The position numbers and the translations under genes were made by a program. From Nanobdellota archaeon (GTDB taxonomy: Archaea; Nanobdellota; Nanobdellia; Pacearchaeales; GW2011-AR1), in contig JBBSXC010000004.1 in NCBI GenBank assembly GCA_038045945.1, positions 35,077-99,076 on the forward strand: a DNA stretch of 64,000 nucleotides. Reading direction: 5' to 3'. The notes under the pieces are model-generated. The model searched no databases and had not been told where the DNA came from. It saw nothing but the letters and a program-made list of their open reading frames with translations. Positions 1 through 59,572 of the stretch are shown in pieces. Within the stretch, counting starts at the first letter, position 1. Every line of letters starts with the position of its first letter.

Positions 1-521
1 GAAAAACTTTGAGCAGATTCGCCCTTAGAGAAAGTTAAAGGGCTAACAATAATGAAGTCCATCCTGTTAAGACTAAGATTCATAATTAAATCAGACCTTG
101 AAGAAGAGCTAGTAACAGCATAACCTTTACTTTCCATTTCCGAACGAAGAGAAGTTAAACAATCAAAAACGGCCGGCCTTAGATCATTAACGATTTCTTT
201 AGAAATAAAGTCTTTAAGGAAGGGTTGTTGTAAAACACAAGTCTTATAGTACTCATTAGTGTAACACAAAAACTCAATTTTACGACCGTTATAAAGATAA
301 TAGTTTTTGTTAACGCTGACACCACCACTAAGAAGAATTTTACTAACAGAATTCTTAATAGGATCACTTAAACATGTTTCTAAAAAACTTTGAGGGTTAG
401 TCTCGATAGTAAAAGTTTTAACATCATTCCAAAAATAAGAAAGAAGACCAACCAGAACCACAATAACTAGAGCGATAATAATGAAAATAGTAACCTGACC
501 CCTTTTATCGGCAATATTCAT
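1..521 (-). CDS. Pilin-like protein with class III signal peptide, partial (C-terminus lies beyond the window start)
   Basis: Reverse-strand frame is open from the ATG (complement of 519-521) to the window edge, 173 codons, no stops. N-terminus MNIADKRG|QVTIFIIIALVIVVLVGLL is a short basic leader, a KRG-Q cleavage-type motif, then a hydrophobic helix. Not in the ORF track because it is truncated. Confidence 0.45.
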   Translation of the reverse strand, partial: MNIADKRGQVTIFIIIALVIVVLVGLLSYFWNDVKTFTIETNPQSFLETCLSDPIKNSVSKILLSGGVSVNKNYYLYNGRKIEFLCYTNEYYKTCVLQQPFLKDFISKEIVNDLRPAVFDCLTSLRSEMESKGYAVTSSSSRSDLIMNLSLNRMDFIIVSPLTFSKGESAQSF

Positions 522-672
522 GATAAATAGTAACAAAAATTGTTTATAAATATTCCCCAAACAAGATAAAACAATTTTATTAGACCAAAAGTGAGGAGAG
601 GAGAAGTGTTACCTCCCAAAAATAACAATATATTCGTAACCGGCTAATAGTAACATTTATATACTAATTTAG

Positions 673-1113
673 ATGGAAAATGTCATGGTTAATGGGTTAA
701 AAGATATAGTTAATAAAGGAGTAGCTTCTTTAGGATTACTTGGAGTTTTAGCAGCTTCTGAAGGTTGCGTTGCTGTTACTACGCCTTCCGAGGCTCTTGG
801 AGTTATGTTCAACCCCTTAGGTTATCAAAAGACTGAGATTGTTGCAGTTCAGGGAGGGTATGTTGAGAAGAAACAATACGCCCTTGGCGGAGTTACATCA
901 ACCAAGTATGTTCAAACTACACCTATTGATTATAATGGTGATGGAATAATAAACCTCTGGGATATGGAACACACTGTGAGTAATGATTTTGGACAACCAG
1001 TTTGGACATGGAATCCACAAAGCCAACAATATAATGGCATAGGTTATACCCCCGGAACACTAAAAGGTGGCGCACCAAAACCTAATTCTCCTAACGAATT
1101 CTTAAATAAATAG
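673..1113 (+). CDS. Hypothetical secreted protein or lipoprotein
   Basis: N-terminal hydrophobic stretch VASLGLLGVLAASEGC, then a Gly/Thr-rich soluble part. Lipobox-like Cys, no recognisable domain. Confidence 0.35.
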   Translation: MENVMVNGLKDIVNKGVASLGLLGVLAASEGCVAVTTPSEALGVMFNPLGYQKTEIVAVQGGYVEKKQYALGGVTSTKYVQTTPIDYNGDGIINLWDMEHTVSNDFGQPVWTWNPQSQQYNGIGYTPGTLKGGAPKPNSPNEFLNK

Positions 1114-1125
1114 ACAATCAAAAAA

Positions 1126-1746
1126 ATGAGAGATAAAATTAAAAAACTTAAAAACACAGGACTAATAGGAATGTTAGCTCTTGCTGGATGCACAACTCAA
1201 GGATGGGGCGTTGGTATGAACACTTTTGGGGTAGGTTTAGGGGGAAGAACTGGTGCGATGTATCAAGCAATGGGACAAGGCGCCATTGCCATAGGTAATA
1301 ACGAAAGACTTTCTCAAAGTATAGAAAATGCTGGAGAGAATATTGCCAATAGACAATCTTCACAAAACTCCAATTTAGTTGGAGGTGAAGATGAGTTTTA
1401 CGATACTATCCTAATAATGAAAGACGGTAGAAGAATAAAAGGTTATTATGATGGGGAGAACGAAAATTTGTTAAGCTTAATGACATGGCACGGAGAATGC
1501 GCATATTCAAAAAACAACATTTGGAAAGTAGTCAATGATAACAAAGACTCCTTAGGTAACGATAATGATTATGACACAGTCTTAATAATGAAAGATGGTA
1601 GAAGACAAACAGGATACTTTACCACAGAAGATGAAAAGTTAGTTAATTTAAAAACATGGCACGGAGAATGCTCATACTCTAAAAATCAGATATGGAAGAG
1701 AATAGACACAAACAAAGAAAAACAAAGCACAGATGAAAAAAAGTAA
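1126..1746 (+). CDS. Lipoprotein with two tandem ~60-aa repeats
   Basis: LIGMLALAGC matches the lipobox (L-A-G-C). Two internal repeats YDT[IV]LIMKDGRR..GY...E..L..L.TWHGEC.YSKN.IWK. Confidence 0.5.
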   Translation: MRDKIKKLKNTGLIGMLALAGCTTQGWGVGMNTFGVGLGGRTGAMYQAMGQGAIAIGNNERLSQSIENAGENIANRQSSQNSNLVGGEDEFYDTILIMKDGRRIKGYYDGENENLLSLMTWHGECAYSKNNIWKVVNDNKDSLGNDNDYDTVLIMKDGRRQTGYFTTEDEKLVNLKTWHGECSYSKNQIWKRIDTNKEKQSTDEKK

Positions 1747-1837
1747 AAATACTAACTAAATCCCATCATCTATCCATTTCGTTACAATAAATGATAATTC
1801 TAATAAGTTTTATAAACGCTTCAGGCGTTAATAATCG

Positions 1838-4174
1838 ATGATGAAAAAGAGTGGTAATAAGCATAATAATTTATTCTCTAAAAAAACTGCTGCTATATCA
1901 ATAATTTTTAACTTGTTACTAGCAATTTTTGCTTTTAGCATTACATTATATAACACAAGTATCGTAAGTGCAGATGGAACACCAGGACAAACTGCACCAG
2001 TAAAATTAAACCCCTACTCAGGAGGATCTACGCCTACATCATCAGGTTCGCAATCAACTAACGTAGGAAAGTTTACACAAGATGCAACTATTGATGGAAC
2101 CTCAGTTTCTGCAGGAACAAAGGTCGTTAAGGTCCAGAATGGTGGAGCAACAAATTATTATGCCCAAGGAGCAGGCCCTAATGGTCAAGATTTGGATATA
2201 ACTAATAGCATTAACAAGAATAATGAATTAGAAGTAGGTAACCCAGCAAATGGGGGAGCGACATTAACACTTGACAATGCAGGCACTACTAAATACACCT
2301 CAGACATTTTTGGTAATTTAGGCACCGGAACAGGAGGATATGCTTTAAGTAATATATTATCAGGATTTCAAACAGCTTTATTCATTGTTGGTGGAATACA
2401 ATTATTAGGGGGACTTTTTGGTTTAGACTCAGCACTAACAAGTTCTCTTAGTGTTTCAGCATTTGCGGGAATAATGGGATATGAAGCAGCTAACACATTA
2501 CTTGTTGGAGGGGACGCACTATTCCCAAACACTATTGGCGGGGGAATACTAGGATCCACAGGAATAGGAGTAGCTATAGGAGTAATAGTTTTCTTAGCAA
2601 CATATAGTTCAACGAGCGAAGAAAAAGTAACATTCGAGTGTAACTTGTGGCAGCCACCAAAAGGAGGAGAAGCATGCGAAAAGTGTAACGTTGACGGAAA
2701 AAACTTCCCATGTAACGAATACAGATGTAGAAGTTTAGGAGCAGCATGCGAATTATTAAATAAAGGAACAGGTGAAGAAAAATGCACATGGATTAACGCA
2801 AGAGACGTTGAATCCCCAACAATAACACCAAACTACCAAAACCTAAGCAGCGGATACCAGTACTCAAACGTACACATAAGACCACCAGGATTAGGAATGG
2901 AAATAAAGAACCTAAACAACACTAACAACGAGGACGGATGTATAGAAGCATTCTTCCCAATAACTTTCGGAGTAACAACTAACGAACCAACAAGTTGTAA
3001 AGTAGACTATAACCACACAGCAAACTTTGACGATATGGGATACTACCTTGGCGGAAGTTCAACATTCAAGTACAACCACACACAAACACTATCATTACCA
3101 AGACCAGCATCAAACTCAAGCGACACTGCCGACCCAGGAATAAAGAATGATGGAAACTACAACTTACTGATAAGATGCTCAGACCCTAACGGAAATTACA
3201 ATGAAGACGAATTCGCAATAAAGTTTTGCGTAAATAAAGGCCCGGACACAACACCAGCAAGAATAGAAGCAACAAGCCTGATTAACGAAATGCCAATATC
3301 ATTTGGCACCGACAAACTAAACATGACAGTTTATACTAACGAACCAGCAGATTGCAAGTGGAGTAATGAAGACAAAGATTACAACGTCATGGAAAACACC
3401 CTTACGTGCTCTCAAAGCGTAACAGAATTCAACACTAACATGCTATACGCATGTAAAGGACAATTAACTGGAATAAAAGACAGAGAAGAAAACAAGTTTT
3501 ATTTCAGATGCAAAGACCAACCAGGAAGAGCAGATAATGAAAGAAATATTAACCAAGAAAGTTACGAATTCAAAGTTTTCGGAACACAACAATTAAACAT
3601 AGTACGCCAAGGACCTAACGGAACAATAATGGGAAGTTCATCAATAGTACCTGTAGACTTACAAGTAGAAACAGCTAACGGGTACAGAGACGGAGAAGCA
3701 ACTTGTTATTACAGCACAACAAACCAAGAAAAAGATTACGTAAAATTCTTTGATACAGGATCATTCATTCATAGACAAAGACAAAACCTAAAAGCAGGAA
3801 CATACGACTACTACTTCAAATGCGTAGACTTAGGAGGAAACGCAGATTATAACAAAACAAGAATAAGAGTAGAAATTGATGAAAAAGCACCAATAATTAT
3901 TAGAGCAAAACACGACAGCGGAGAAAGCAGCGTTTGTGGAAACTCAGGATGCTTACAAATAACAACAAACGAAGATTCAACATGCACTTACAGTACAACA
4001 ACTTGCAATTACGAAATAACTAACGGAATTAAAATGTCAGATGATAACACTCGAGTCCACTTCGTAGAATGGAACACTAATTACAACTACTATATAAAAT
4101 GCTCAGACAGAAGCGGAAACCAACCAGCAACAACAAGCTGCTCAATGACTGTTAAAGCTTATAACAACAAATGA
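1838..4174 (+). CDS. Large Cys-rich cell-surface protein (putative adhesin) with repeated ~100-aa modules
   Basis: 778 aa. N-terminal basic leader plus hydrophobic segment. Gly/Thr-rich stretch. Two glycine-zipper hydrophobic segments (GGIQLLGGLFGL; GILGSTGIGVAIGVIVFLA). Then four modules each starting TNE[PD]..C and ending [YF][NYF][LFY][LFY][IF][RK]C[SKV]D..GN. Stop overlaps the next start (ATGA). Confidence 0.6.
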   Translation: MMKKSGNKHNNLFSKKTAAISIIFNLLLAIFAFSITLYNTSIVSADGTPGQTAPVKLNPYSGGSTPTSSGSQSTNVGKFTQDATIDGTSVSAGTKVVKVQNGGATNYYAQGAGPNGQDLDITNSINKNNELEVGNPANGGATLTLDNAGTTKYTSDIFGNLGTGTGGYALSNILSGFQTALFIVGGIQLLGGLFGLDSALTSSLSVSAFAGIMGYEAANTLLVGGDALFPNTIGGGILGSTGIGVAIGVIVFLATYSSTSEEKVTFECNLWQPPKGGEACEKCNVDGKNFPCNEYRCRSLGAACELLNKGTGEEKCTWINARDVESPTITPNYQNLSSGYQYSNVHIRPPGLGMEIKNLNNTNNEDGCIEAFFPITFGVTTNEPTSCKVDYNHTANFDDMGYYLGGSSTFKYNHTQTLSLPRPASNSSDTADPGIKNDGNYNLLIRCSDPNGNYNEDEFAIKFCVNKGPDTTPARIEATSLINEMPISFGTDKLNMTVYTNEPADCKWSNEDKDYNVMENTLTCSQSVTEFNTNMLYACKGQLTGIKDREENKFYFRCKDQPGRADNERNINQESYEFKVFGTQQLNIVRQGPNGTIMGSSSIVPVDLQVETANGYRDGEATCYYSTTNQEKDYVKFFDTGSFIHRQRQNLKAGTYDYYFKCVDLGGNADYNKTRIRVEIDEKAPIIIRAKHDSGESSVCGNSGCLQITTNEDSTCTYSTTTCNYEITNGIKMSDDNTRVHFVEWNTNYNYYIKCSDRSGNQPATTSCSMTVKAYNNK

Positions 4175-4674
4175 TAAGAAATAAACGCGCCCAACAAACA
4201 ATGGGCATGCCATTCTCAGTAATTTTTTCAATAATACTAATAGTAGTATTCATAATAACAGCAGGAATAGTAGTAAGACACTTTCTCGGACTTCAAAAAT
4301 GTTCTGAAATGAGCATATTTCTCAAAGGTTTACAAGATAACGTTGACAAAGTATGGCAATCATCTGCAAGAGAAGAAACATTCACAGTAGGATTACCATC
4401 ATCAATTAAAGAAGTATGCTTCACAAACATGACAGAGCCATTAACAGATAACAAGTATTCTGACGTAAAAGTAAGATACGGATTTTATAACCCGAACTTT
4501 TTCTTCTACCCACCAGAAAAAGCATGCGAAATACCATACCACACGATAAAACACCTAAACATAAGCAGTGTAACAAAAGGAAGAAACCCTTACTGCATCA
4601 CAAACGAAAACAACCCAAAAATGAAAATAAGTAAAGGATTCTACGAAAGCCTAGTAAGAATAGAAAAAGTATAA
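4171..4674 (+). CDS. Pilin-like protein (class III signal peptide)
   Basis: MIRNKRA|QQTMGMPFSVIFSIILIVVFIITAGIVV is a basic leader, A-Q junction and hydrophobic helix. Start overlaps the upstream stop by 4 nt. Confidence 0.5.
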   Translation: MIRNKRAQQTMGMPFSVIFSIILIVVFIITAGIVVRHFLGLQKCSEMSIFLKGLQDNVDKVWQSSAREETFTVGLPSSIKEVCFTNMTEPLTDNKYSDVKVRYGFYNPNFFFYPPEKACEIPYHTIKHLNISSVTKGRNPYCITNENNPKMKISKGFYESLVRIEKV

Positions 4675-4737
4675 GGATTCTAAAACAAAAACATTGCAAT
4701 AAAAGAGTATAAAAAGTGTTTATTGATAGTTATCATA

Positions 4738-5721
4738 ATGGAAAAAAGGGGTTTTGAATTCTCATTCAATTGGATATTCGCACTAATCGCAGGAGCAGCA
4801 ATACTGTTCATAGCAATATACGCATCAGGAAAATTTCTAAACACAGGAGAATTCCAACAAAGTACAGAAACAGCAAAAAAGTTAACGACACTATTCGAAC
4901 CATTAGGAGTCCAAGGATTAGGAGAAGCAAGAACAGGAAAAATAAGTCTACAATCAGACATAAAAATATATTCAGATTGCTTCACGGACGGCAGCCTAGG
5001 AAGACAAAGAATATCAATAGCAGAAAAGAAAAGCTTTAATGATAAAGAATACGGCGACAAAGGTGTAGGAATAGAATTCTCAAACAAGTACATATTCTTT
5101 ACGGAAGAATCAGAAGGAAGAGAATTTGACTATTTCACAAAAAGCTTAAACTTACCATTCAAAACAGCAAACCTTCTGGTAATAACAGACAAAAATTATT
5201 GTTTTGTTAAACCACCAAGATTCGTAGAAGATGAAATAAACGATTTAGGAATGAAAAACATAATAATAAAAGAAACAGTAGGAGACTGTATAAAAAACAT
5301 GACGATGATAAACAAGAGTCAAGTAGTATGCTTTGATACAGGATCAACAAACACTTGCGGCAGCATGGTAACGGACACATCAGGAGCAGGAGAAGAAAAA
5401 TATAGTAGAGGATACGTAAATAGCCCCTCCGGGACAAAATACTTCGTAAAAGAATTATTGTATCCGGCAATATTCTCAAAAAAGACAGATTATGAGTGTA
5501 ATGTAAAAAGAATAATGATGAGAACAAGCAACTTAGCAAAACTTTACACAGAAAAATCAAAATTGTTATCAATAAGAGGAGTATGCGAAAGCGGACAAGA
5601 AACAGCACTACTAACACTAGACACAGCAGCAAGAACTCTAAGAACATCACAAGACCTATCAGGCGTAAAATCAATAGCTGACGGAATAAACCAAAACGGA
5701 ATATGCGAATTATGGAACTAA
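4738..5721 (+). CDS. Pilin-like protein (class III signal peptide); start moved to internal ATG
   Basis: Starting at 4738 gives MEKRG|FEFSFNWIFALIAGAAILFIAIY, a canonical short class III leader. The track ORF starts at 4723. Confidence 0.5.
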   Translation: MEKRGFEFSFNWIFALIAGAAILFIAIYASGKFLNTGEFQQSTETAKKLTTLFEPLGVQGLGEARTGKISLQSDIKIYSDCFTDGSLGRQRISIAEKKSFNDKEYGDKGVGIEFSNKYIFFTEESEGREFDYFTKSLNLPFKTANLLVITDKNYCFVKPPRFVEDEINDLGMKNIIIKETVGDCIKNMTMINKSQVVCFDTGSTNTCGSMVTDTSGAGEEKYSRGYVNSPSGTKYFVKELLYPAIFSKKTDYECNVKRIMMRTSNLAKLYTEKSKLLSIRGVCESGQETALLTLDTAARTLRTSQDLSGVKSIADGINQNGICELWN

Positions 5722-6230
5722 AAAAAATAACAAACAAAAAAGCACAGTTCAAAATACAACAAACAGCATTCATGATACTAGGAACAGTATTATTCTTTGT
5801 ACTAGTAGGATTATTCTGGTTAACACTAAAATCATCAAGCATTAACAAAAGCGCGGCAAACATAAAACAAGAAGAAGCAATAACCTTAGCACTAACAATA
5901 GCAGACTCACCAGAACTAACGTGCGGAACACAATGCATAGACTATGACAAGGCACAAGCACTAAAAAATACAAGACTATTCGAAGCAGTATGGCCAATAA
6001 GAAGCATAGAAATAAGAAAGATATACCCAAAAATAGGGGGAGGAACAATAATTGAGTGTAATAGCGGAAATATAGACAGTTGCAACCTAATAAGAATTGA
6101 AAACAAAGGAATAACATCCAGTAATGGGGGAACGGCATCAAGTTATGTAAAAATATGCAGAAAAGAAAAAAATGCTGAAGGATACACATACGACAAATGC
6201 CAGTTCGGAGAAATAACAATAAAAACATGA
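5712..6230 (+). CDS. Pilin-like protein (class III signal peptide)
   Basis: MELKKITNKKA|QFKIQQTAFMILGTVLFFVLVGLFW. Start overlaps the end of the upstream gene. Confidence 0.5.
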   Translation: MELKKITNKKAQFKIQQTAFMILGTVLFFVLVGLFWLTLKSSSINKSAANIKQEEAITLALTIADSPELTCGTQCIDYDKAQALKNTRLFEAVWPIRSIEIRKIYPKIGGGTIIECNSGNIDSCNLIRIENKGITSSNGGTASSYVKICRKEKNAEGYTYDKCQFGEITIKT

Positions 6231-6745
6231 AGAACAAGCGAGGACAGGATGAAATAGTAGGATTCATAATAATAGTTCTGCTAGTAAGCGTGGTAGCATT
6301 AGTGTTCTTTGGGATAACCCTAAGAAAAACAGCGCCAATAGAAAGCTCAGTAAGACTAGAAAACTTTGCAGGGGCGGCACTCGGAGTAACAACAGATTGT
6401 AGCATAAAAAAAGTGCCAAGCTACTTAGACTTAGAAGACCTAATAAAAGAGTGCAGAAAAGGAACAAGTTGTTATGATGGGAAGAAAACGTGTGAATTAT
6501 TAAACAAAACAGTAGGAGAATTATTAGATTCAACATTCCCAATAAACGGCCAAGCACCAACAAACTATTACAGTTTTAAAGCATACTACCAACAAAACAC
6601 AAGCCAAGGAAGCAGCGGAGGAGTAGAATTCTACACTACAGAAAAAGGAAAATGTGAAGGAACAAAGAGCGGAAACACTCAAAGCATAAGCAGCCTGCCA
6701 GGGGTAATAAGAGTAGAAACACAAATATGCAGCAGTAGTGCCTAA
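6227..6745 (+). CDS. Pilin-like protein (class III signal peptide)
   Basis: MKNKRG|QDEIVGFIIIVLLVSVVALVFF. ATG at 6227 overlaps the upstream TGA (ATGA coupling). Confidence 0.5.
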   Translation: MKNKRGQDEIVGFIIIVLLVSVVALVFFGITLRKTAPIESSVRLENFAGAALGVTTDCSIKKVPSYLDLEDLIKECRKGTSCYDGKKTCELLNKTVGELLDSTFPINGQAPTNYYSFKAYYQQNTSQGSSGGVEFYTTEKGKCEGTKSGNTQSISSLPGVIRVETQICSSSA

Positions 6746-7101
6746 AAGTTAAGATTAATAGAAAGCTGAGAAACTTCAACTTCCGGCCTAACAGTCTTAC
6801 GGTTACCCTTACGCTCAGAAATAAGCTTAACAAAACCGAAACGTTCAAGGATTTTAAGATCCTTAGTAACAGCCTTAAAGTCACGACTTAACATTTTAGA
6901 AAGAGAATAAATAGATAAAGGTTTTTGGTTCTTAATAACATAAAGCATTTTAGCACGCTCATTACTAAGAAGCTTACGCAGGTCAGTAATACCAGAAAAG
7001 TCGTAATCCTCAGCCTTTTTACCACTAATTTTCTTAAATAAGAAACTAAAGGACGTGGGAGTAATGTATAAATCAATAATACGCTTCTTCTTCGACGCCA
7101 T
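6742..7101 (-). CDS. Winged-helix transcriptional regulator (small archaeal wHTH family)
   Basis: 119 aa with a helix-turn-helix-like segment LSIYSLSKMLSRDFKAVTKDLKILERFGFV. Convergent with the pilin-like operon. Confidence 0.45.
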   Translation of the reverse strand: MASKKKRIIDLYITPTSFSFLFKKISGKKAEDYDFSGITDLRKLLSNERAKMLYVIKNQKPLSIYSLSKMLSRDFKAVTKDLKILERFGFVKLISERKGNRKTVRPEVEVSQLSINLNF

Positions 7102-7462: not shown

Positions 7463-10051
7463 ATGGTTATGTTTAAAAAAATAGCATCGATTTTGGCGAG
7501 CGCAGTAATGCTTGGAAGCACTATGGGTGCAGCATTCGCAGCTAATTACCCAGCACCTTTCGTGTCGGGTGGAGCAGCAGATGTAGCAATCGTTTATGGT
7601 TCTAACGCAGCTGTTAGCGACTTATCGGCAGCTATAGATATACAAACAAACCTTCAAAGCAAAGTAACAAGTTCCTCAGGTTCATCAGCATCAAGTACAG
7701 GTGGAGATTCTGCAGATTTGGCTTCTTCAAGTCAGAAACTGTACGTAAACTCTACTTTAAGTGCGGCAAGAACAGTTCTTACAAAGGACTACTTACCAAC
7801 ACTACTAGCTGATGGTTCCGCTTACGACAATGCAGGAACAGAGTACAAATATACACAGGTAATTTACCCAGGTATAAACACTAGAAAAATTACTTTCGGA
7901 AAATCTTCTGAAAGTGTCGACCCTGCCCTAATCTTAGATTTGGGTTATTCGGGAACAAGCGCACCAACGTATAACTATACTTTGACATTCTCTAAGATTC
8001 TTAATGTATCAAGTTCTGACGTAGTTGGAACAGCCGACATTATGATTTTAGGAAACAAGTATACTATTGGTTCGAATTCCGATTCTAACACTCTGTACCT
8101 ATACGGAAGCGGTACAACAACCACTGTCGAGGAAGGCAATACTGCAACAGTAACAGTTGGCGCTAAAGACCACACAGTAATGTTGGTTGGAACTTCTGCA
8201 ACAAATACTGCTACTATCGAAGTTGATGGATCATCAAGATCCGTTACTAAGGGTAACAGCTACAAGTTCGCAGACGGTTTCGAAGTTTACGTCAAAGATT
8301 TATTCCACGCAACAAAGACTGGAACACTTTCCAGAGCTGAACTTTTAATAGGTTCAACTAGTCTACACTTCGAAGACGGACAATCCGTCAGAGTTGGTGC
8401 AGATGACACTTCGTTGTTAGGAACTAATGCTGAAATAACAGGAACTGCTGGTGCTGGAATCAGTGCAATAATGGTTTCACAATCAGCAGAATCAAGTATA
8501 GGAGACTACCTTAAAGCTGGTCAATCCTACACTGACAGAGTTTTCAAGAACTTAGTTCTTGATCACGTTGGTCCTGTTCCATCATTAGATGCTGAAAGCA
8601 GAGATATGCTAAGATTCGACACGGACAACTCCGTAGCTGCAAGAGCAACCTTTACAACAGATTTATCTGATAAAGAGTACACTCTAAACTACGCGAGGGA
8701 CTCAGACCAAACCGCAGATTCAGCTCTTGCTAGAGTTGACTTCTCTTACGACAACAACCTTAATATGACAAATATTGAGGGTGGTAATGCTAAGATGCAA
8801 GAATACCTTATCGTTAATGATAACGATTATGGTGTGATTCTTCGTGTTGACTCAATCCCAGCGGGAACGAGCACAAACGATCAATTAACGTTTTCGGATG
8901 CCATAACAGGAGAACAATATAAGTTCACTGTAGGTAACCTTAACACAACAACAGCAGTTGCAAACATCCGCGGCGGAGAATACTATGTTAACACAAACCC
9001 TTCAAACGCTGACAGCGCCTTATGGACTGTTAACGTAACTTGGGGTGCGGGTTCTGCTGCCGGTAATCCTGGTACGCAAACAACATTGTATCCTAGAATA
9101 AAGTTGCAAAACGGTGAGTGGATTTCATTCTTAACACAAGCAACAGTTAATAATGCTACCACTTATTCACTTCCAGGATTATATACACTATCTGATTACA
9201 AATCAGGTAGCATATTAACTGGTGGTAACGCTACAAACGCATACAACAGAAACTCAACGAGTTTCGGTAACGTAGCATTTAATGTAACATGGACTACTAA
9301 CAGCACGGCTAATCCTGCTGCAGGTACCCTAGATTCATTGAATCTTGGCGGAAGTAGTTGCATCTTTAACTCTACTATGGGTCCAGCTGTACTTTTACAG
9401 GAAGAGAAGACTGTTGATACAACAAACGGTCACGCTATCTGTATTCCATTGACAACGTCAAGCGGAAGTAACAGAATGCCTGCAATAGGCACTCCACTAT
9501 TCTCTGACACTTTAGGAAGCTTCGCAACACTGCAAAGCAATTCTTACAAGAGTCAGGCAATGGACAAGTTTGGTACATGGGTTGAGAGGGACACTACTAC
9601 AAACACCAACGGTGCTGTAGCTATAAGTTATCCAAGTGAACAGATGTATGTTGATGTATTCTTCCGTGGGAAGGAAACAACACTAACTCCAGGTTCCGAG
9701 GGCTCACAAGGCACTGGGAATGTTCTTATATTTAAGGACTCTGAGAGTGAATCGTTCATGAACAAGAACTTAGTAGTTATAGGTGGAAGCTGTGTTAATA
9801 CGGTAGCAAGGAAACTTGTTGACGCTAGCGCAAATTCACCAATCTGTGGTGCTGACTTTACAGCTAAGACAAACGTAGGTGCTGGTCAATACATGTTAAA
9901 GGCAATGGAATCTCCATATAATGTGGGTAAGGTTGCAATGCTTGTAGCAGGTTACGAAGCAGCAAATACTGCAACTGCAGCTGCAAAGTTGAAGGAAGGT
10001 CACGCAACGGACAAGGGAACGTCAAACGTTTACCCTGTTCAATCTGCTTAA
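7463..10051 (+). CDS. Putative S-layer / major cell-surface protein
   Basis: 862 aa. Signal peptide MVMFKKIASILASAVMLGSTMGAAFA. Ser/Thr/Gly/Asn-rich with no Cys-rich domains. Codon usage is less A-rich than neighbours, suggesting high expression. Long 5' leader and strong hairpin stack downstream. Confidence 0.55.
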   Translation: MVMFKKIASILASAVMLGSTMGAAFAANYPAPFVSGGAADVAIVYGSNAAVSDLSAAIDIQTNLQSKVTSSSGSSASSTGGDSADLASSSQKLYVNSTLSAARTVLTKDYLPTLLADGSAYDNAGTEYKYTQVIYPGINTRKITFGKSSESVDPALILDLGYSGTSAPTYNYTLTFSKILNVSSSDVVGTADIMILGNKYTIGSNSDSNTLYLYGSGTTTTVEEGNTATVTVGAKDHTVMLVGTSATNTATIEVDGSSRSVTKGNSYKFADGFEVYVKDLFHATKTGTLSRAELLIGSTSLHFEDGQSVRVGADDTSLLGTNAEITGTAGAGISAIMVSQSAESSIGDYLKAGQSYTDRVFKNLVLDHVGPVPSLDAESRDMLRFDTDNSVAARATFTTDLSDKEYTLNYARDSDQTADSALARVDFSYDNNLNMTNIEGGNAKMQEYLIVNDNDYGVILRVDSIPAGTSTNDQLTFSDAITGEQYKFTVGNLNTTTAVANIRGGEYYVNTNPSNADSALWTVNVTWGAGSAAGNPGTQTTLYPRIKLQNGEWISFLTQATVNNATTYSLPGLYTLSDYKSGSILTGGNATNAYNRNSTSFGNVAFNVTWTTNSTANPAAGTLDSLNLGGSSCIFNSTMGPAVLLQEEKTVDTTNGHAICIPLTTSSGSNRMPAIGTPLFSDTLGSFATLQSNSYKSQAMDKFGTWVERDTTTNTNGAVAISYPSEQMYVDVFFRGKETTLTPGSEGSQGTGNVLIFKDSESESFMNKNLVVIGGSCVNTVARKLVDASANSPICGADFTAKTNVGAGQYMLKAMESPYNVGKVAMLVAGYEAANTATAAAKLKEGHATDKGTSNVYPVQSA

Positions 10052-10287: not shown

Positions 10288-10920
10288 ATGAGAGAATTAA
10301 CAAGCAGAGAAGAAATAGAAAAGAAAGAAAAAAGAAACAAGACAACCCTGGGAATAATAATGGTCCTACTAATGCTTCTAAGCACAGCAGGATACGCATT
10401 ACTAAACTACCAATCAACAAGCACAGACACATCATCAGGAACACCAATAGCCAGTAATCCTAGCGGACAAATAGTTGAATACAACAAAATAAAGTTTGTA
10501 GGACAAGAAAGCGGACTGTGGCTATTTGAAGTACAAGGAAACACATTTTATTCATCGTACACACCGGAAGAAGTAAAACACATTAACGTACCATTCATAA
10601 ACATACAAGCATTCTCAGGACAAACAGTCTATTACTCAGGAAACATACTAGCAGCAAGAGAAATACTAACAAACATTAACCCATACATAATTAGATCGCA
10701 AGAAGCATGCTTACAAGAATCAAACATAAGCAACCAAAAATGCGAAGATAACCTGCCAATAAAAGACTGCACAAATACGTTCCTAGTAATAACAGAAGTA
10801 GGAGAAAATGAAACATCAAGAGTAACAACAGATAATAAGTGTATAATAATAAAGAGTAAAGATACAGAACTTTTAAAAACCGCTGACGCATTACTTTTCA
10901 GAATATTAGGAGTACAATGA
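10288..10920 (+). CDS. Membrane-anchored secreted protein (paralog of the next gene)
   Basis: One N-terminal TM (LGIIMVLLMLLSTAGYALL). Cys-containing C-terminal part shares a ...ETSRVTTDNKCII motif with 10925-11602. Confidence 0.4.
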   Translation: MRELTSREEIEKKEKRNKTTLGIIMVLLMLLSTAGYALLNYQSTSTDTSSGTPIASNPSGQIVEYNKIKFVGQESGLWLFEVQGNTFYSSYTPEEVKHINVPFINIQAFSGQTVYYSGNILAAREILTNINPYIIRSQEACLQESNISNQKCEDNLPIKDCTNTFLVITEVGENETSRVTTDNKCIIIKSKDTELLKTADALLFRILGVQ

Positions 10921-10924
10921 AAAC

Positions 10925-11602
10925 ATGACTAAAAAAAATATTAAGAAAGAAAAAGAAGAAGTGAACATTAATAGTGAAGCCTTCAGAAACAAACAATTAA
11001 GAAACATAACACTAATAATGGGAGTAGTAATACTAGTAACAATTATAGCATACTTAGTAACTAACAATTTATCAAACCCCAGCTATAGAGGTTTACAATT
11101 TACAAAAAATACTCAAGGTGGAGTAGACTTCTACATTGTTAAAGTGCCCGCAATTGATCCACTAACAGGAAAAACGCAAGGATACTACGACATGATCCTA
11201 AGAACAAACCCAAAAGAATTAGACAAAATAGAATATGATGGTAGAACAAAAATCTTAAGAAACGTGATAATGTCATTTGATAGAGCAATCGAAGGATGCG
11301 AAGACAACGTAATAGCAGTAGCAAACATGGCAAGATTCTTAACCGATGCAGGATTCCAGGTTAAAGGAGCATCACACGAGTACGAATACGCACAAGAAAC
11401 AAACATGACATACGCAACATGCGCGGACGCAGAAAACTCAACAGTCATAGTGTTACAAAAAGCTTTAAACGGAGAAACAACAAGCGTTAGAGAAACAGTG
11501 AATAATTGTTACATCGTTAATATTGCAGAGTGCCAAACACTACCAGCCCTTGAAAGAATGATGACTGAGATAGCTATTGAAGCATCAAAACAAGGACAAT
11601 AA
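10925..11602 (+). CDS. Membrane-anchored secreted protein (paralog of the previous gene)
   Basis: One N-terminal TM (ITLIMGVVILVTIIAYLV). C-terminal ...TTSVRETVNNCYIV resembles the upstream gene. Confidence 0.4.
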   Translation: MTKKNIKKEKEEVNINSEAFRNKQLRNITLIMGVVILVTIIAYLVTNNLSNPSYRGLQFTKNTQGGVDFYIVKVPAIDPLTGKTQGYYDMILRTNPKELDKIEYDGRTKILRNVIMSFDRAIEGCEDNVIAVANMARFLTDAGFQVKGASHEYEYAQETNMTYATCADAENSTVIVLQKALNGETTSVRETVNNCYIVNIAECQTLPALERMMTEIAIEASKQGQ

Positions 11603-12261: not shown

Positions 12262-12798
12262 TCATTTTTTGAGATATCTTAATAAAAACTTGAAGTCATC
12301 ATAAACAGGAATACCACTTATAACAAAAACTTTTGTTGTAGTAAACCAAACCCCTAAAACTATTATAATACTAAGAAAATACCAAGAAAACAAGTGTAAA
12401 GTATCAAAATAGTTACTACCTCCTTCGGAAACAGCAATAAGAGAAAAAATCGTTATTCTAATAACATTAATAATTAGGAATAAAGAAAGAGAAAAAACCA
12501 CGGCCTTGACCCTCTTATGAAGGATCATAGGCGTCGTTAAACAAAGAGCTAACAGTAAATAATAAGCTGCTCCAGCAACACAAGCATCTACTAATCCTAT
12601 TGTTAAACCATTAAAAACTATTAATTTTTCTAAGAAAAATCCTTGAGTAGAACCCACCAACCCCAACATAAACAAGGATAAGAAGTAAGTTATCGGGCTC
12701 ATAAAATAATAAATAATGAATAAGCCATTAATAGAAATAAGAAATAAAGAAAGATACCTACTTATTAAAGCAACAAAAAAACTATTAGAGTAATTCAT
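12262..12798 (-). CDS. Exosortase/archaeosortase-family membrane protein (short form)
   Basis: 178 aa polytopic membrane protein with VDAC-V-AG (Cys in a CxG context), an N-V-I-R-I motif and a downstream His (DTLHLF), in the order of the exosortase/archaeosortase Cys-Arg core. Sits in an operon with a surface protein carrying a C-terminal sorting-type tail. Confidence 0.45.
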   Translation of the reverse strand: MNYSNSFFVALISRYLSLFLISINGLFIIYYFMSPITYFLSLFMLGLVGSTQGFFLEKLIVFNGLTIGLVDACVAGAAYYLLLALCLTTPMILHKRVKAVVFSLSLFLIINVIRITIFSLIAVSEGGSNYFDTLHLFSWYFLSIIIVLGVWFTTTKVFVISGIPVYDDFKFLLRYLKK

Positions 12799-12832
12799 AA
12801 TACTAATATAAAGACTTGATTAATAAATAAAA

Positions 12833-13261
12833 CTATTTGTCATTAAGATTAGCCCAAATCCATCTTTGACGGAAAGATCTTGAATGGTCCTCTTGAGCAT
12901 CCCACAAAACACTCATCTCAATCTTACTAGAATCAACCTTTTCCCCTTCAGGCAAATTGTCATTATAACCAAGCTCTTTAGCAAGCCTACTCTCAGTTAA
13001 TTGTTCTTCTCTTGATTCACTTCGCTCATATTTATGAACATCGTGCCTTATGCCCCTACGAACATAATCAACAAGTCTTTCTTTAATAATAGGAGAATCA
13101 CCAACTAAAGAATTATAAGAAGTTCTCATTAGGTCAATAGGACCATGAGTAAAAGAACCTATTAATTCAGCTAAAAAAACTCCCGCAGTAACACCACCAA
13201 ATACAACACATGCTGTTAAACCAAGACAAGAAGAGCAACCGTCATTATTTTCATTAGCCAT
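12833..13261 (-). CDS. Hypothetical small membrane-anchored protein
   Basis: 142 aa. N-terminal CSSCLGLTACVVFGGVTAGVFLAELIG is hydrophobic, the remainder charged. Lies between the surface protein and the sortase-like gene. Confidence 0.35.
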   Translation of the reverse strand: MANENNDGCSSCLGLTACVVFGGVTAGVFLAELIGSFTHGPIDLMRTSYNSLVGDSPIIKERLVDYVRRGIRHDVHKYERSESREEQLTESRLAKELGYNDNLPEGEKVDSSKIEMSVLWDAQEDHSRSFRQRWIWANLNDK

Positions 13262-13278
13262 AGAATTAATAGAAATTT

Positions 13279-15213
13279 TTATTCTCTTCTTGAAAGTCTT
13301 ACAGCTGCAATTATTATTGCTGCTATTAAAATAATATTAGCTAATACTATAACCCAAATAACCCAGTTTTCCTTAATGCTGTCAATTATTGCTGAACCTG
13401 AAGGTGCAGATGAACCCTTAATGAATACAACTGCTTCTTGATCAGTAATAACACTACCTTTTGATGCTCTAATAGTGAATTTTTGTTCTCCAGAAGTGCC
13501 GCTCTTAGGAGTTAAAGTTATTGTAACGTCTCTGCTTTCTCCTTTAGCTAAAACTACTGATGAAGGCTCAACACCATCAAGAACAGCCCATGATTCGTAA
13601 CTGAAAGGAATTATTGAGAAAGTACCAGCATCAGAGTTAACATTTCTAATACTAGCTCTAATAACTAATTCTTTACCAGCAACAGCCTCAGACTCTAAAG
13701 TTGGGGAAATTGTTAATAAACCATCGGAAGATGATCCATCATCTACACAGTTACCTTCAACTCTGAAAGATCTTAAGACACGATCATTAACAGACTCATA
13801 GTTATCATTTCTTGAGTTGTATTCGTGTCTTGCTTCAATACCTAACTGGAATAATTTTTCATCAGCATCTTGGGGTATGTCAATATTGAATATTACTCTC
13901 TTGCTTTCACCAGCGTCAAGGTTACTTAATAATACTTCTTGGTCTATTCCTAATTCATCATTAGTTACACTTACAAGAACTCTCTTCTGATCTTTGTCGC
14001 CAATGTTGTGAACTTGTGCTTCAAGACTAGCGCTTGAACCACACATTAAAGGACTTTCAATCTCTAAATCAGTTATTCCAACTTCGTAATCATCACGATC
14101 ATTAATGCTTATACTTTCAAAAGCCCTAGAGTCCCAACGGTTATCGCATTGTTCGTCTTGGTCACCGTCAAAGTAAGCTTTAACGTATAATCTTGCATTG
14201 TCAGGAGTGTCAGCTGGAAGAGTGAAGTTGAAAAGGAATGTTTCCTCATCATCATCATTTATTGAGATTGTTTGTTCGTCTTCGAATAAGTTGTCGCCGT
14301 TTTCTGGGTCGTAAAGAGTGATAGCAACAGTTACGTCTTGTTCATCATTATCATTGTTTCTAGCTTCTATTTCAAGTTCTATTTCTTCAAGAAGATCCCA
14401 ATCGAAGTTACCATTGCTTGATGTTTCATCTTGAACTGAGACTATCTCAACATCGTTACCTATTTCACCAGACTCACAGAAGTCTTGGTTGAATGTTAAA
14501 ACAGTTGAAGTGCTGAATAATGTTGAAGCAGCTCTAATAGTAGTGCTTGCTGAACCAAGAAGTAAATCAATGTCTTCAGGATCTTGGGAGTAAGTAACAT
14601 TAATTATTTTAGTCTCTTGAGGGTTAAGATTGAAAGACTCAGTTGGAGTAAAGCTTAATGATAATTCTTCATCATCAGAATCTCTAACAGCGTTATTCTC
14701 AATGGAAACAACAATATTAGTTATAGGTTGATTACCATCATTCTTTATAGTTACAGAAGCATTATTACTGCTCTTGTTAAGAATAACAGGGCTTTTTAAG
14801 AATTTTAATGAAGCAAAAGAATTAACAGCAACTGATACAGGAATAGAAGCTATTGGAACACCACTACTGTAATTAACAAAAATTGTTCCAGATGTAGGAT
14901 TAGTTGAATACTTAGGAACAGTCAATTGTAAAGAGTAAGAATTAGTACCACTTGGTACAATAATATCACTAGTCTTGCTTAAAACAGGATTCCATGAGGA
15001 AAACCCAGAAGTTCTTATTATTACATTAGCATCAGCTACATCAGAACTTGCAAGAGTGAAATCAAAGGAAATTGTTCTAGTAGTACTATCATCACTAGGA
15101 TTAGTAGAGTTTGAAAAGCTTGTTTGCGAAGCAGTTATTGTAGCACTAACGGAAACTACAGCTAAAAGCAATATTAAACTTGCAAAAATTATACTAAATA
15201 ATCTCGATTTCAT
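13279..15213 (-). CDS. Cell-surface protein with N-terminal signal peptide and C-terminal TM plus basic sorting-signal-like tail
   Basis: 644 aa. MKSRLFSIIFASLILLLAVVSVSA signal. Ser/Thr/Asn-rich N-terminal part and an Asp/Glu-rich middle. C-terminus KENWVIWVIVLANIILIAAIIIAAVRLSRRE is a short motif, hydrophobic helix, then basic cluster, like exosortase/archaeosortase substrates. Confidence 0.6.
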   Translation of the reverse strand: MKSRLFSIIFASLILLLAVVSVSATITASQTSFSNSTNPSDDSTTRTISFDFTLASSDVADANVIIRTSGFSSWNPVLSKTSDIIVPSGTNSYSLQLTVPKYSTNPTSGTIFVNYSSGVPIASIPVSVAVNSFASLKFLKSPVILNKSSNNASVTIKNDGNQPITNIVVSIENNAVRDSDDEELSLSFTPTESFNLNPQETKIINVTYSQDPEDIDLLLGSASTTIRAASTLFSTSTVLTFNQDFCESGEIGNDVEIVSVQDETSSNGNFDWDLLEEIELEIEARNNDNDEQDVTVAITLYDPENGDNLFEDEQTISINDDDEETFLFNFTLPADTPDNARLYVKAYFDGDQDEQCDNRWDSRAFESISINDRDDYEVGITDLEIESPLMCGSSASLEAQVHNIGDKDQKRVLVSVTNDELGIDQEVLLSNLDAGESKRVIFNIDIPQDADEKLFQLGIEARHEYNSRNDNYESVNDRVLRSFRVEGNCVDDGSSSDGLLTISPTLESEAVAGKELVIRASIRNVNSDAGTFSIIPFSYESWAVLDGVEPSSVVLAKGESRDVTITLTPKSGTSGEQKFTIRASKGSVITDQEAVVFIKGSSAPSGSAIIDSIKENWVIWVIVLANIILIAAIIIAAVRLSRRE

Positions 15214-17022: not shown

Positions 17023-17430
17023 TTATTCTTCAAACATTGGGTCTTTCTGTGCTTGTGGTTGTTGGAACTGCATTCCAGGCTTGTATATCTCTGCGAATGA
17101 TGGTGTTGCTATGATAGTGTTTTCTCCAAATCCTGCTACACTACCATCTAAAGCTTCAACCGTCTTCTTAATTTTAGAAATTGCCCTCTTAAGTTCGACA
17201 ATGTCTCTTGATTTGATTTGTCTAATATCAATAACTGCTATTGTGTATCCTTCTCTTAAAGCAGCTAGTATGTCATTTATGTCTTCAAACTTCTTTATTA
17301 CGAAAGGTCTGATAATGATTTTTGATTTTTTCTCTTTTTGTTCAACGTCTATTTCAACATAATCTTCGTCGAATGATGAGTCTCTACCGAACAAGTTTGA
17401 AAAACCCTTTTTTAATGTGTCCATTGCCAT
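17023..17430 (-). CDS. sepF: Cell division protein SepF
   Basis: 135 aa. The core IIIRPFVIKKFEDINDILAALREGYTIAVIDIRQI...DGSVAGFGENTIIATP fits the SepF/DUF552 fold. FtsZ is encoded in the window. Confidence 0.65.
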   Translation of the reverse strand: MAMDTLKKGFSNLFGRDSSFDEDYVEIDVEQKEKKSKIIIRPFVIKKFEDINDILAALREGYTIAVIDIRQIKSRDIVELKRAISKIKKTVEALDGSVAGFGENTIIATPSFAEIYKPGMQFQQPQAQKDPMFEE

Positions 17431-18337: not shown

Positions 18338-19219
18338 ATGGTAAAATTATACTATTCTAGGCTCTCTAATGAAGAAAAGTCGACGATTAAACAATTAACA
18401 GAGGATGGTAAAAGTTTGAGAGAAATAGCAAAAATAATGAGTCTTGGGATAACCACTATTTATTATTATACTAGAAAATTTAAACCAAAAGTAAAAGAAC
18501 CATTTGTTAATAAACTAAAAGATTTTGAAGTAGGCGAGCTTATTGGAGCTTTTGCTGGGGATGGGAGCTTTATTCATCGCTTTAAGACTAATGGTGGTAG
18601 AAACTCTCAATACACAGTCAGATACCATCTTTCTTTAATAACTGATAAAGAATATGCTTCATATCTAAGCTCATTACTAGAGAAAATTAATTTAAACCCG
18701 ATGACATCATTTGTAGAAAAGTCGCATAGGCTAGATGTTACAATAAACTCAAAAGATTTCTATAATCTTGTTAAAGAGTACTTAACCTGGAAGGAGGATA
18801 AAACACTTAGCATAGAATTATCAAAACCAATCAATGAATATTATGATGATTTCTTAAGAGGTTTTGCTAGAGGGATTATGGACACTGACGGTTTTTTAAA
18901 TGATGCTAACGCTGGATGCGCATGTATTTCTGAAAGATTGATTGATAACCTAGCAGAAATATTTATGAAGTTTAATCTAAATATCTCAAGAAGTTGCATT
19001 CAAAGATCTGGAAATAGAAGACAAATATTTTATATCAGAGTTTTAAGAAAGAGTCTTGAGGATTATATCAGGGATATAGGTTTCTCTAATTTGCACAAAT
19101 CAAAAAAATTAGAATTCTTGATAAATAAAAATGGGGCTGCCCAGATTCGAACTGGGATCATGAAGTCCCAAACCTCAGATACTAACCAAGTTGTACTACA
19201 GCCCCATCTGAATAGTTGA
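18338..19219 (+). CDS. Free-standing HTH plus double-motif LAGLIDADG endonuclease-like protein
   Basis: N-terminal HTH (LTEDGKSLREIAKIMSLGITTIYYY). First LAGLIDADG motif LIGAFAGDGSF, second FLRGFARGIMDTDGFL. The open frame runs ~88 nt antisense through the tRNA-Pro gene, so the true C-terminus is uncertain. Confidence 0.55.
   Translation: MVKLYYSRLSNEEKSTIKQLTEDGKSLREIAKIMSLGITTIYYYTRKFKPKVKEPFVNKLKDFEVGELIGAFAGDGSFIHRFKTNGGRNSQYTVRYHLSLITDKEYASYLSSLLEKINLNPMTSFVEKSHRLDVTINSKDFYNLVKEYLTWKEDKTLSIELSKPINEYYDDFLRGFARGIMDTDGFLNDANAGCACISERLIDNLAEIFMKFNLNISRSCIQRSGNRRQIFYIRVLRKSLEDYIRDIGFSNLHKSKKLEFLINKNGAAQIRTGIMKSQTSDTNQVVLQPHLNS
19132..19205 (-). tRNA. tRNA-Pro (anticodon TGG)
   Basis: Manual fold: acceptor GGGGCTG/CAGCCCC, D stem GTAC/GTAT, anticodon stem TGAGG/CTTCA with loop TTTGGGA, T arm CCCAG-TTCGAAT-CTGGG, discriminator A. 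74 nt, CCA not encoded. Confidence 0.8.
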
Positions 19220-24336: not shown

Positions 24337-25437
24337 TCATTCAACGAATTCTATTCCTAATTCGTCGCTCATCTCCATTTGTTTTCTTTCTTCAGGAGTT
24401 GATGATGAACTACCAACTATTTGTGATGATTTAACACCAGTAACAATTACTAAAACCCTTATTGATTTATCCATGTCCTCAGATATTTGTGCTCCACCAA
24501 TCATTCTAGCATCAGGGTTAAGTCTAGTACCAACGTATTCCAAAACCGTTTTGTACTCATCAAGACTTAAATCGTTACCACCGATAACATTAACTAAAGC
24601 TCCTTCAGCGTTACTAATATCAACATCTAATAGAGGATTCTGAATTGCTTTCTCAACAGCTTCAGTCGCTCTCTGAGCAGAATCAGATTCTCCCATACCA
24701 ATCATTGAAACGCCACCATTAGACATAACAGCCCTAACATCAGCAAAATCCAAATTAACAAGACCTGTTTTTGTAACTAATTCAGTAATACCTTTAACGG
24801 CATTGGTTAATATTTCATCAGCAATTTTGAAAGCAGTAGGTAAAGGTAATTCTGGGGCTAATTCTAAAAGTTTATCATTAGGAATAACTATCAAGGTATC
24901 AACAATTCCCTCAAGTCTTTCAAGACCATAATAAGCATTCTCGATTCTCTTATTACCTTCAATAGTGAATGGTAGGGTAACAACACCTATTGTTAGCGCT
25001 CCTTGTTTCTTAGCCAAGTCAGCTACAACTGGCGCTGCACCAGTACCTGTTCCACCACCAAGACCACAAGTAATGAATATCATATCAGCACCACTCAACT
25101 TCTTCTTAATTTCTGATTCTTGCTCTCTAGCTGCTTCCTCACCGATTTTAGGATTAGAACCAGCACCTAAACCCTTAGTTAGTTCTCTACCAATGAGTAT
25201 TTTGTGATCAGCATTAGTGTATAATAAGTCCTGAGCATCTGTATTAATAGCGATGAAGTCTCCGCCTTTAATTCCGACCTCTTTCATACGACTAAGAGTG
25301 TTATTACCACCACCACCTATACCAACAACTTTAACCTTAGCTGACTGTTTCTTAATAAGCTCCTCTAATTCCTTATCAACCTCTAAAAGTTCAGCGCTAG
25401 AACTATCATCTCCCCTTTTAGAAAAAATCTCTGCCAT
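24337..25437 (-). CDS. ftsZ: Cell division GTPase FtsZ
   Basis: VVGIGGGGNNTLSRM, the tubulin signature GLGGGTGTGAAPVVA, and NTDAQDL. Start set to ATG 25437; the track uses TTG 25455. Confidence 0.95.
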   Translation of the reverse strand: MAEIFSKRGDDSSSAELLEVDKELEELIKKQSAKVKVVGIGGGGNNTLSRMKEVGIKGGDFIAINTDAQDLLYTNADHKILIGRELTKGLGAGSNPKIGEEAAREQESEIKKKLSGADMIFITCGLGGGTGTGAAPVVADLAKKQGALTIGVVTLPFTIEGNKRIENAYYGLERLEGIVDTLIVIPNDKLLELAPELPLPTAFKIADEILTNAVKGITELVTKTGLVNLDFADVRAVMSNGGVSMIGMGESDSAQRATEAVEKAIQNPLLDVDISNAEGALVNVIGGNDLSLDEYKTVLEYVGTRLNPDARMIGGAQISEDMDKSIRVLVIVTGVKSSQIVGSSSSTPEERKQMEMSDELGIEFVE

Positions 25438-25482
25438 GAAATTAAAAATTGTCAAATAACTATATAAAGATTTATGTGATAT

Positions 25483-56948: not shown

Positions 56949-56956
56949 AAAAAACA

Positions 56957-57751: not shown

Positions 57752-57753
57752 AA

Positions 57754-58002
57754 ATGTCAATGTTACTAAAACCAGTCACAAGCGAAAAAGCAGTGAGAAT
57801 GATAGAAGGAGAAAACACACTAGTATTCGCACTAGACAGAAGAGAAACAAAAGAAGAAATAAAGAAAGAAGTAGAAAAAACATTCAACGTAAAAGTAGAA
57901 AGAGTAAACGTAATAAACAAAAAGAACGAAAAACACGCATTAGTAAAACTAAAAAAAGACTTTAAAGCAATAGACGTAGCAACAAAGCTAGGAATGATAT
58001 AA
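57754..58002 (+). CDS. rpl23: Ribosomal protein L23 (uL23)
   Basis: 82 aa: LKPVTSEKAVRMIEGENTLVFALDRRETKEEIKKEVE. Confidence 0.9.
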   Translation: MSMLLKPVTSEKAVRMIEGENTLVFALDRRETKEEIKKEVEKTFNVKVERVNVINKKNEKHALVKLKKDFKAIDVATKLGMI

Positions 58003-58007
58003 ACAAT

Positions 58008-58394: not shown

Positions 58395-58400
58395 TTTACC

Positions 58401-59123: not shown

Positions 59124-59130
59124 ATAAAAA

Positions 59131-59553: not shown

Positions 59554-59572
59554 AGGTAATAAAATAACAAAA

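Follow-up and report, generated by a model that had tools for sequence, protein, structure and literature searches.

Can a cell-surface structure be built from pilin-like subunits whose genes have no recognisable pilus motor gene within 10 kb? The question is raised by a gene cluster (locus tags AABW73_02920-02945) at the start of a 64-kb stretch of archaeal DNA, positions 35,077-99,076 of contig JBBSXC010000004.1, here called the window; 8.2 kb of upstream DNA was also examined. An earlier note, made from the sequence of the window, had taken the source for a tiny-genome archaeon; it is a small-genome DPANN archaeon of Pacearchaeota type, and all the cluster genes that the note described are found where it placed them. 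The protein families are designated A to G: A, D, E, F and G are the smaller proteins with pilin-like N-termini, while B and C are large and Cys-rich. The reading favoured here, to which we give a probability of about one in two, is that the cluster encodes a complex for the cell surface or for adhesion, derived from type IV pilins, with the class III peptidase encoded elsewhere.

In each of the five pilin-like proteins of the window, a brief basic leader ends at a [KR][GA] junction with Gln or Phe at position +1, and a hydrophobic helix follows. Family A reads MNIADKRG/QVTIFIIIALV (the slash marks the predicted junction), and the others have the junctions KRA/QQ (D), KRG/FEF (E), KKA/QFK (F) and KRG/QDE (G). 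Beyond these five, a six-frame scan of the 64 kb found no coding N-terminus in which [KR][GA] is followed by Gln, Phe or Tyr and then by a hydrophobic stretch. Judged by sequence, the five families carry a predicted archaeal class III-type leader: a basic segment, [KR]-[GA(S)] and a helix of about 20 residues.

Relatives of C are encoded in 516 species-level DPANN genomes, according to a scan of one genome per GTDB species. Eighty of these 516 loci were fetched, and synteny was established by calling open reading frames (ORFs) and applying family hidden Markov models over 86 loci. The motif, scored in these loci as [KR][GAS]/[QFY] plus a hydrophobic stretch, occurs in 86 of 102 A proteins (84%), 26 of 42 D proteins (62%), 26 of 41 E proteins (63%), 35 of 39 F proteins (90%) and 36 of 38 G proteins (95%). 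The control, made up of the other ORFs of at least 100 aa, yielded 4/552 (0.7%), and none of those 4 has Gln at +1. The enrichment in the five families far exceeds chance. The consensus sequences are K[KR]G/QVTIFIIIA for A, K[KR][GA]/Q..LSFGMIFSIILI for D, K[KR]G/[FY]L[QE]ISF[AG]WLFAII for E (Phe or Tyr at +1), KK[AG]/QLKIQQMAFMLIAVTLFF for F and K[KR][GAS]/QEE[IM]VGFVLI for G. The +1 Gln column is invariant in the A, F and G alignments, and G has an invariant Glu at +3 and Gly at +6 as well. The five class III-like N-termini first picked out in the earlier note are present, specific and conserved at the junction down to about 35% identity, the predicted junction being kept even in relatives at 34-37%. 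The hydrophobic stretch begins directly after the junction, and there is no AxA-type site.

Similarity between the families is limited to the first 50-55 residues or so in a clean profile-profile comparison (95.6% probability for D versus E, 35-87% for the others), which looks like the pattern of pilin families. A homology of D and E over their full length was rejected as an artefact of cross-contaminated alignments, since clean alignments match only in the N-terminal ∼55 residues. In the PDB, the D profile matches best to the type IV pilin PilE1, at its N-terminal helix, and does so weakly (E = 0.051). In the AlphaFold2 model of E, built from an alignment of 68 sequences (predicted local distance difference test, pLDDT, 91; predicted template modelling score, pTM, 0.85), a single 49-residue helix takes up residues 10-58; beta-sheets come next, and then a helical bundle at the C-terminus. 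The Cys count is even in all the small cluster proteins, at 4-8 each.

Protein C has a layout of its own. A basic N-terminus and a signal or transmembrane (TM) helix with a VSA site precede a variable ectodomain; three hydrophobic, Gly-rich helices follow (residues 164-193, 198-222 and 240-255), then a small domain with 7 Cys (268-316) and about four immunoglobulin (Ig)-like domains, each with conserved Cys. The 23 Cys of the protein all come after residue 268. By hydrophobicity the first and last helices clearly qualify as TM segments, with the middle pair borderline; the distribution of charges does not fix the membrane topology. In the AlphaFold model (pLDDT 79) the N-terminal helix is followed by a small beta domain, the three helices, the small 7-Cys domain and about four beta-sandwich domains at about residues 340-778. 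Foldseek gave 486 matches of the Ig region to PDB entries at E <= 0.001, to generic targets: multi-Ig adhesion molecules, bacterial surface layer (S-layer) proteins (8cka, 9g93) and the grappling-hook protein GhpA. Sequence models produced sub-threshold Ig-like matches only (DUF4625, Big_13, Y_Y_Y). The signal peptide, the Cys pairs, a conserved NHT that resembles a sequon and the joining of C to the exported domain of B suggest that the Ig region lies outside the cell, and the model makes C a probable exported surface protein with tandem Ig-like domains. A sorting signal of the PACE-CTERM type was not found in C, which ends in MTVKAYNNK without a C-terminal hydrophobic segment. With internal hydrophobic helices next to about four Ig-like domains, C appears to be membrane-embedded and is no obvious pilus-tip adhesin. 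The part of tip adhesin, proposed for this 778-aa protein in the earlier note, is not supported so far: the protein has its own signal or TM helix and a block of three hydrophobic helices, and in the paralogous copy and in distant relatives it is fused to a 500-aa Cys-rich ectodomain. Of the overall interpretation, the pilin-like signature and a role at the surface hold; a tip adhesin and a pilus are so far not borne out.

The genes listed at first do belong to the locus, but the cluster is larger, with two modules of A plus B/C. B lies outside the window, on the same strand as A and next after it (L001 6353-7891), and is a protein of 512 aa with a Sec signal and 44 Cys. The second module, upstream and likewise off-window, consists of a 262-aa paralogue of A (NKRG/QVTMFIIIA) and a 1252-aa B-C fusion. 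The N-terminal half of the fusion aligns with B (32% identity over 472 aa) and the C-terminal half with C from residue 160 onward (32% identity over 675 aa), so that B and C are best regarded as two halves of one ancestral protein. In the order that recurs between genomes, PCNA, a small ORF, A, a BC fusion, A, B and variable small genes are followed by C, D, E, F and G; beyond G come a helix-turn-helix (HTH) regulator on the opposite strand, the S-layer-like gene, two paralogous N-anchored proteins, VTT/DedA, the pacearchaeosortase and the PACE-CTERM protein. The A-B pair is inverted in the present genome with respect to the colinear order that is common elsewhere. Dozens of loci keep the block A-B/BC ... 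C-D-E-F-G, which upholds the view of the small genes and the large Cys-rich protein as one locus. In relatives at 34-37% identity, the order A-BC-A-BC-D-E-F-G-S-layer persists, with both copies fused.

The relatives come from a restricted set of archaea. Nearly all of the 80 fetched loci are titled Pacearchaeota, Woesearchaeota, Nanoarchaeota or unclassified 'archaeon', and one Candidatus Aenigmarchaeum sp. A word-indexed database search returned 40 relatives of C, all labelled DPANN and all annotated as hypothetical; the A family has 498 database matches, all 'hypothetical' DPANN proteins, and the G family is represented by 834 representative clusters (50% identity) at E <= 1e-3. The cluster is chromosomal and vertically inherited in DPANN archaea of the Pacearchaeota/Woesearchaeota type. 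The earlier note could map the gene set to no described pilus locus, and no cluster protein has a Pfam or NCBIfam family: A, B, D, E, F and G are recognised by no model of either collection beyond TM noise, and searches of PDB sequences, with profiles for A, D, E, F and G and with the single sequence for B, gave nothing significant.

Sequence conservation is lacking in the genes between B and C, which often encode lipobox proteins or toxin-antitoxin inserts; other genomes carry unrelated small lipoproteins there. Toxin-antitoxin-like ORFs (nucleotidyltransferase/HEPN-like and RelE-like, by eye) were seen in this interval in L010, L017, L019, L039, L065, L082 and L086, and their repeated occurrence suggests a tolerated insertion hotspot inside the cluster. 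In one locus (L025 7771-8775) the interval holds a gene for a GT4 (MraY/AglH-type) glycosyltransferase, which hints at glycosylation of the cluster products; a 337-aa ORF at the same position in another (L028 4647-5660) resembles that gene by a comparison of the N-termini only. Additional A-like genes are paired with secreted proteins of 620-680 aa that are not Cys-rich (L066 13410-15332; L071 12390-14249 and 15000-16901; L083 12569-14611), so the A family may be a general partner of different large surface proteins.

How might such a complex be made? A class III signal peptidase encoded elsewhere would cut the leaders after [KR][GA]. The long N-terminal helices of the mature proteins could then bring them together as a short stalk of pilus or pseudopilus type, or as a bundle close to the membrane, and this assembly might dock onto the B/C ectodomains, or display them, at or through the S-layer. 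The product would be an adhesion or contact structure serving a host-attached lifestyle. An extended pilus, a short pseudopilus and a membrane-proximal bundle may all be envisaged as its form. The pilin-derived reading rests on the signature, the invariance of the junction, the similarity confined to the N-termini, the long helix of E and the gene content, which parallels that of the clade-1 (Epd-type) loci described below; the even Cys counts, the conserved block, the Ig tandem of C, the S-layer and PACE-CTERM neighbours and the reportedly firm host attachment of Pacearchaeota support it further.

Several observations weigh against this reading. Secretion ATPase, TadC/FlaJ platform and A24 peptidase genes are absent from the 64-kb window, as the earlier note had said. 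Scans of its multi-TM and large ORFs gave no A24, T2SSF or T2SSE match; the Walker A pattern [AG]x4GK[ST] has a single, spurious low-complexity match in the stop-free frames, and the sole P-loop-like sequence is a GxxGxGKG of adenylate-kinase type at 25483-26121 (-). The suggestion that these genes lie off-window finds no backing in the flanks: none of the 86 loci has a type IV pilus (T4P) ATPase, platform or prepilin peptidase within 10 kb, in a scan that covered these flanks and not the rest of each genome, and a Walker A of the T2SSE type is absent from all their ORFs. Of 20 unassigned multi-TM ORFs in the flanks, the 8 that were scanned are transporters or proteins of the PAP2, GT4, VTT, SPP and lycopene cyclase types. 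A recurring flank gene of 498 aa has an N-terminus that resembles lysyl-tRNA synthetase by eye. The sequences themselves also depart from the standard pilin picture. D and F often have a Lys at +3 and polar residues ahead of the hydrophobic core, which is atypical of mature pilin N-termini. No protein of the window matches a pilin or class III N-terminal model of Pfam or NCBIfam at E <= 1 (PF07790 Pilin_N, PF04021 Class_IIIsignal, PF01917 and the NCBIfam archaeal flagellin/pilin N-terminal models), and Pilin_N matched only 2 of 50 members of the A family, at E = 0.12. Under what we take to be the strict FlaFind pattern, [KR][GA][ALIFQMVED][ILMVTAS]x3, A alone would pass. The globular part of E matches no solved structure, pilins included, in a fold search, and C, with its own membrane helices, could not take a tip position without further processing. 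Finally, according to one preprint, DPANN genomes lack T4P components (10.1101/2020.05.14.094862). Statements in the literature conflict on this point, as FlaIJK-type pili are reported in several DPANN lineages and an Epd-like 'system 1', with many pilins and accessory proteins, in some (10.64898/2026.04.22.720090 for system 1); no T4P statement specific to Pacearchaeota was found.

The strongest competitor, a possible reading that we nevertheless consider less probable than the pilin-derived one, is a non-filamentous envelope complex. In it A and D-G would be bitopic membrane proteins held by uncleaved signal anchors (N-in, C-out) and, together with the helices of C and the lipoproteins, would form a membrane-anchored pseudo-periplasmic scaffold with no pilus machinery; its role might be to hold or arrange the S-layer or to provide a site for docking or contact. 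Much of what burdens a pilin complex fits such a scaffold directly: the missing T4P machinery around all 86 loci, the membrane-embedded C, the globular domains that are not pilin-like by fold search, the silence of the curated class III and pilin models and the common +3 Lys of D and F. Its constant neighbours are an S-layer-like gene without a membrane anchor (N-terminal signal only) and the pacearchaeosortase/PACE-CTERM system. The latter argument is weak, however, as PCNA is equally syntenic on the other side and the S-layer adjacency may be just conserved backbone. Against this competitor stands the junction itself: a plain anchor needs positive charge, not a conserved [KR]-[GA] and an invariant Gln in three unrelated families, and the motif is mostly missing from the N-anchored neighbours x210 and x225 (present in 3/44).

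A more specific sub-case of the pilin-derived reading, and an unlikely one, is that the cluster is the accessory minor-pilin and adhesin module of a true extended pilus of the Epd-like (system 1) type, with the ATPase, two TadC proteins, EppA and the major pilin encoded elsewhere. The cluster proteins have the +1 Gln that is reportedly the hallmark of EppA substrates in Methanococcus. The reported presence of system 1 in some DPANN archaea agrees with it, and so does the make-up of the clade-1 (Epd-type) T4P loci of archaea: five or more minor pilins, a pair of large adhesin-like proteins and one S-layer-like protein (PMC4858521). Yet no homology at the family level is seen with Epd pilins or with DUF2341/PilY-like adhesins (B, C and BC have no DUF2341 match), in none of the 86 loci are the machinery genes linked to the cluster, and the cluster has no small candidate for a major pilin. 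Similarly doubtful is an unrecognised, lineage-specific envelope machine of Pacearchaeota/Woesearchaeota in which pilin-derived subunits, with no canonical T4P motor, would surround the membrane-embedded B/C proteins as an S-layer-spanning apparatus for host contact. Ordinary Sec signals, chance matches or a virus or mobile element are very improbable explanations: although C and B do carry ordinary Sec-type signals, no evidence in support was found, the motif stands at 62-95% in the five families against 0.7% elsewhere, the hydrophobic stretch lies right at the junction, and a viral or mobile origin is rejected by the absence of any relative among 2.9 million viral contigs and by the chromosomal backbone, which is conserved between PCNA and the S-layer gene across deep divergence.

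A chain of four genes joined by ATGA stop-start overlaps had been described; it is real at C/D (4171-4174) and F/G (6227-6230), but E and F overlap by 10 nt, and D and E are separated by a 63-nt gap with a predicted internal promoter, the TATA-like gtataaaaag about 27 nt 5' of the start codon of E. One transcript with coupled translation is conceivable at most for C-D and for E-F-G, and not across the D/E gap. Similarly, just one of the two supposed lipoproteins upstream of C is convincing, with a canonical lipobox and two repeats of the pattern YDT[IV]LIMKDGRR...WHGEC.YSKN.IWK; the other has a non-canonical site only, and a homolog in 1 locus only. The features are collected in Table 1. The S_layer_C gene, the pacearchaeosortase and the PACE-CTERM protein a few kb downstream place the cluster in a conserved cell-envelope gene island.

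Table 1. Cluster genes and their neighbours (window coordinates; a slash marks the predicted junction)
Feature	Position	Strand	Remarks
Family A, pilin-like N-terminus	1..521	(-)	173 N-terminal aa inside the window; full length 266 aa, L001 7884-8684
146-aa secreted or lipoprotein-like protein	673..1113	(+)	non-canonical SEGC; lineage-specific
206-aa lipoprotein	1126..1746	(+)	canonical lipobox LAGC; two ∼45-aa tandem repeats; lineage-specific
Family C, 778 aa	1838..4174	(+)	Cys-rich, Ig-repeat membrane protein
Family D, 167 aa	4171..4674	(+)	pilin-like N-terminus MIRNKRA/QQTMGMPFSVIFSIILIVV
Family E, 327 aa	4738..5721	(+)	pilin-like N-terminus MEKRG/FEFSFNWIFALIAG
Family F, 172 aa	5712..6230	(+)	pilin-like N-terminus MELKKITNKKA/QFKIQQTAFMILG
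Family G, 172 aa	6227..6745	(+)	pilin-like N-terminus MKNKRG/QDEIVGFIIIVLL
HTH regulator, HVO_A0114 / HTH_11 type	6742..7101	(-)	convergent, conserved, between G and S-layer-like gene
S-layer-like protein (S_layer_C)	7463..10051	(+)	conserved neighbour; context, not a shown component
Paralogous N-anchored proteins (x210, x225)	10288..10920, 10925..11602	(+)	hhalign 100%; no family; always after S-layer-like gene
Pacearchaeosortase	12262..12798	(-)	NF033505, 153 bits
142-aa ORF	between pacearchaeosortase and PACE-CTERM gene, within 12262..15213	(-)	context
PACE-CTERM putative S-layer protein	13279..15213	(-)	NF033506, 464 bits

Three observations concern the rest of the window. An ORF with HTH_38 and LAGLIDADG_3 domains (18338-19219 (+)) overlaps tRNA-Pro(TGG) at 19131-19206 (-). 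Genes for SepF (17023-17430 (-)) and FtsZ (24337-25455 (-)) point to FtsZ-based division in this small-genome archaeon. Positions 56000-64000 have a very strong AT skew (∼0.55), which coincides with plus-strand ORFs that have ribosomal-protein-like N-termini (L2- and L14-like, for example) and A-rich codons; opposite-strand ORFs called mechanically in this part are probably no real genes.

In groundwater and sediments, Pacearchaeota and Woesearchaeota rank with the most abundant of the uncultivated archaea. They have minimal metabolism and a life that seems firmly attached to hosts, and Pacearchaeota have been reported to be unusually firmly attached to their hosts (PMC7906910). The cluster is a concrete, nearly clade-wide candidate for the molecules of DPANN host attachment. 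It comprises eight or more co-conserved surface proteins without family assignment, at least one of them with a confidently modelled fold that has no solved relative, and it bears on the re-use of pilin-type N-termini in archaea for structures other than classical pili. No description of the cluster was found in the literature searched. It is best seen as a pilin-type surface system, with a modest chance of being a distinct DPANN envelope machine. In role, such a motor-less machine may be likened to an unidentified, barrel-shaped complex imaged by cryo-electron tomography beneath the S-layer of another DPANN archaeon (PMC11329633). One family of the cluster may overlap Makarova's DPANN-specific secreted family 'NEQ255', which adjoins S-layer-like genes (PMC6393860).

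Among known systems, the bacterial minor-pilin/PilY1 priming complex (FimU-PilVWX-PilY1) and the type II secretion system's pseudopilus tip (GspH-I-J-K) offer a parallel in organisation. There too, four small pilin-like proteins, of which one is about double the rest in size (E, comparable to GspK or PilW), are encoded in a row beside a protein of about 1000 aa or more, and similarity is confined to the N-terminal helix. The parallel is an analogy only, with homology undetectable: the junction of the cluster is the archaeal [KR][GA]/Q and not G/F...E5, and it has a membrane protein with Ig repeats, not a beta-propeller, for its large partner. The Sulfolobus bindosome (BasEF) shares with the cluster class III-type N-termini on sizeable non-pilin ectodomains (266 aa in A, 327 aa in E) and genes that lie away from the assembly machinery. 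Unlike the bindosome, the cluster has neither substrate-binding-protein domains nor the context of an ATP-binding cassette transporter, and five co-conserved families together with B/C suggest a structural complex rather than solute capture. Archaeal S-layer anchors (SlaB of Sulfolobales) and PACE-CTERM proteins likewise combine an Ig-like ectodomain with a membrane anchor beside S-layer-type genes, whereas C has an N-terminal signal and an internal helix block with no C-terminal TM segment or sorting signal; no homology to them was detected, and C is accompanied by five pilin-like families.

The remaining comparison is with the clade-1 (system 1) Epd loci of Methanococcales and Thermococcales (PMC4858521, 10.64898/2026.04.22.720090). 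The cluster differs from these in the lack, in or near any of the 86 loci, of the ATPase, the TadC pair, EppA and FleN, in the lack of model matches to Epd pilins, Pilin_N, Class_IIIsignal and DUF2341, and in a large protein embedded in the membrane through a Gly-rich helix block, with no candidate for a short major pilin. What it has in common with them is at least five class III-type small proteins in one locus, Gln at +1, conserved Cys in the components, and large secreted adhesin-like proteins encoded alongside S-layer-like genes.

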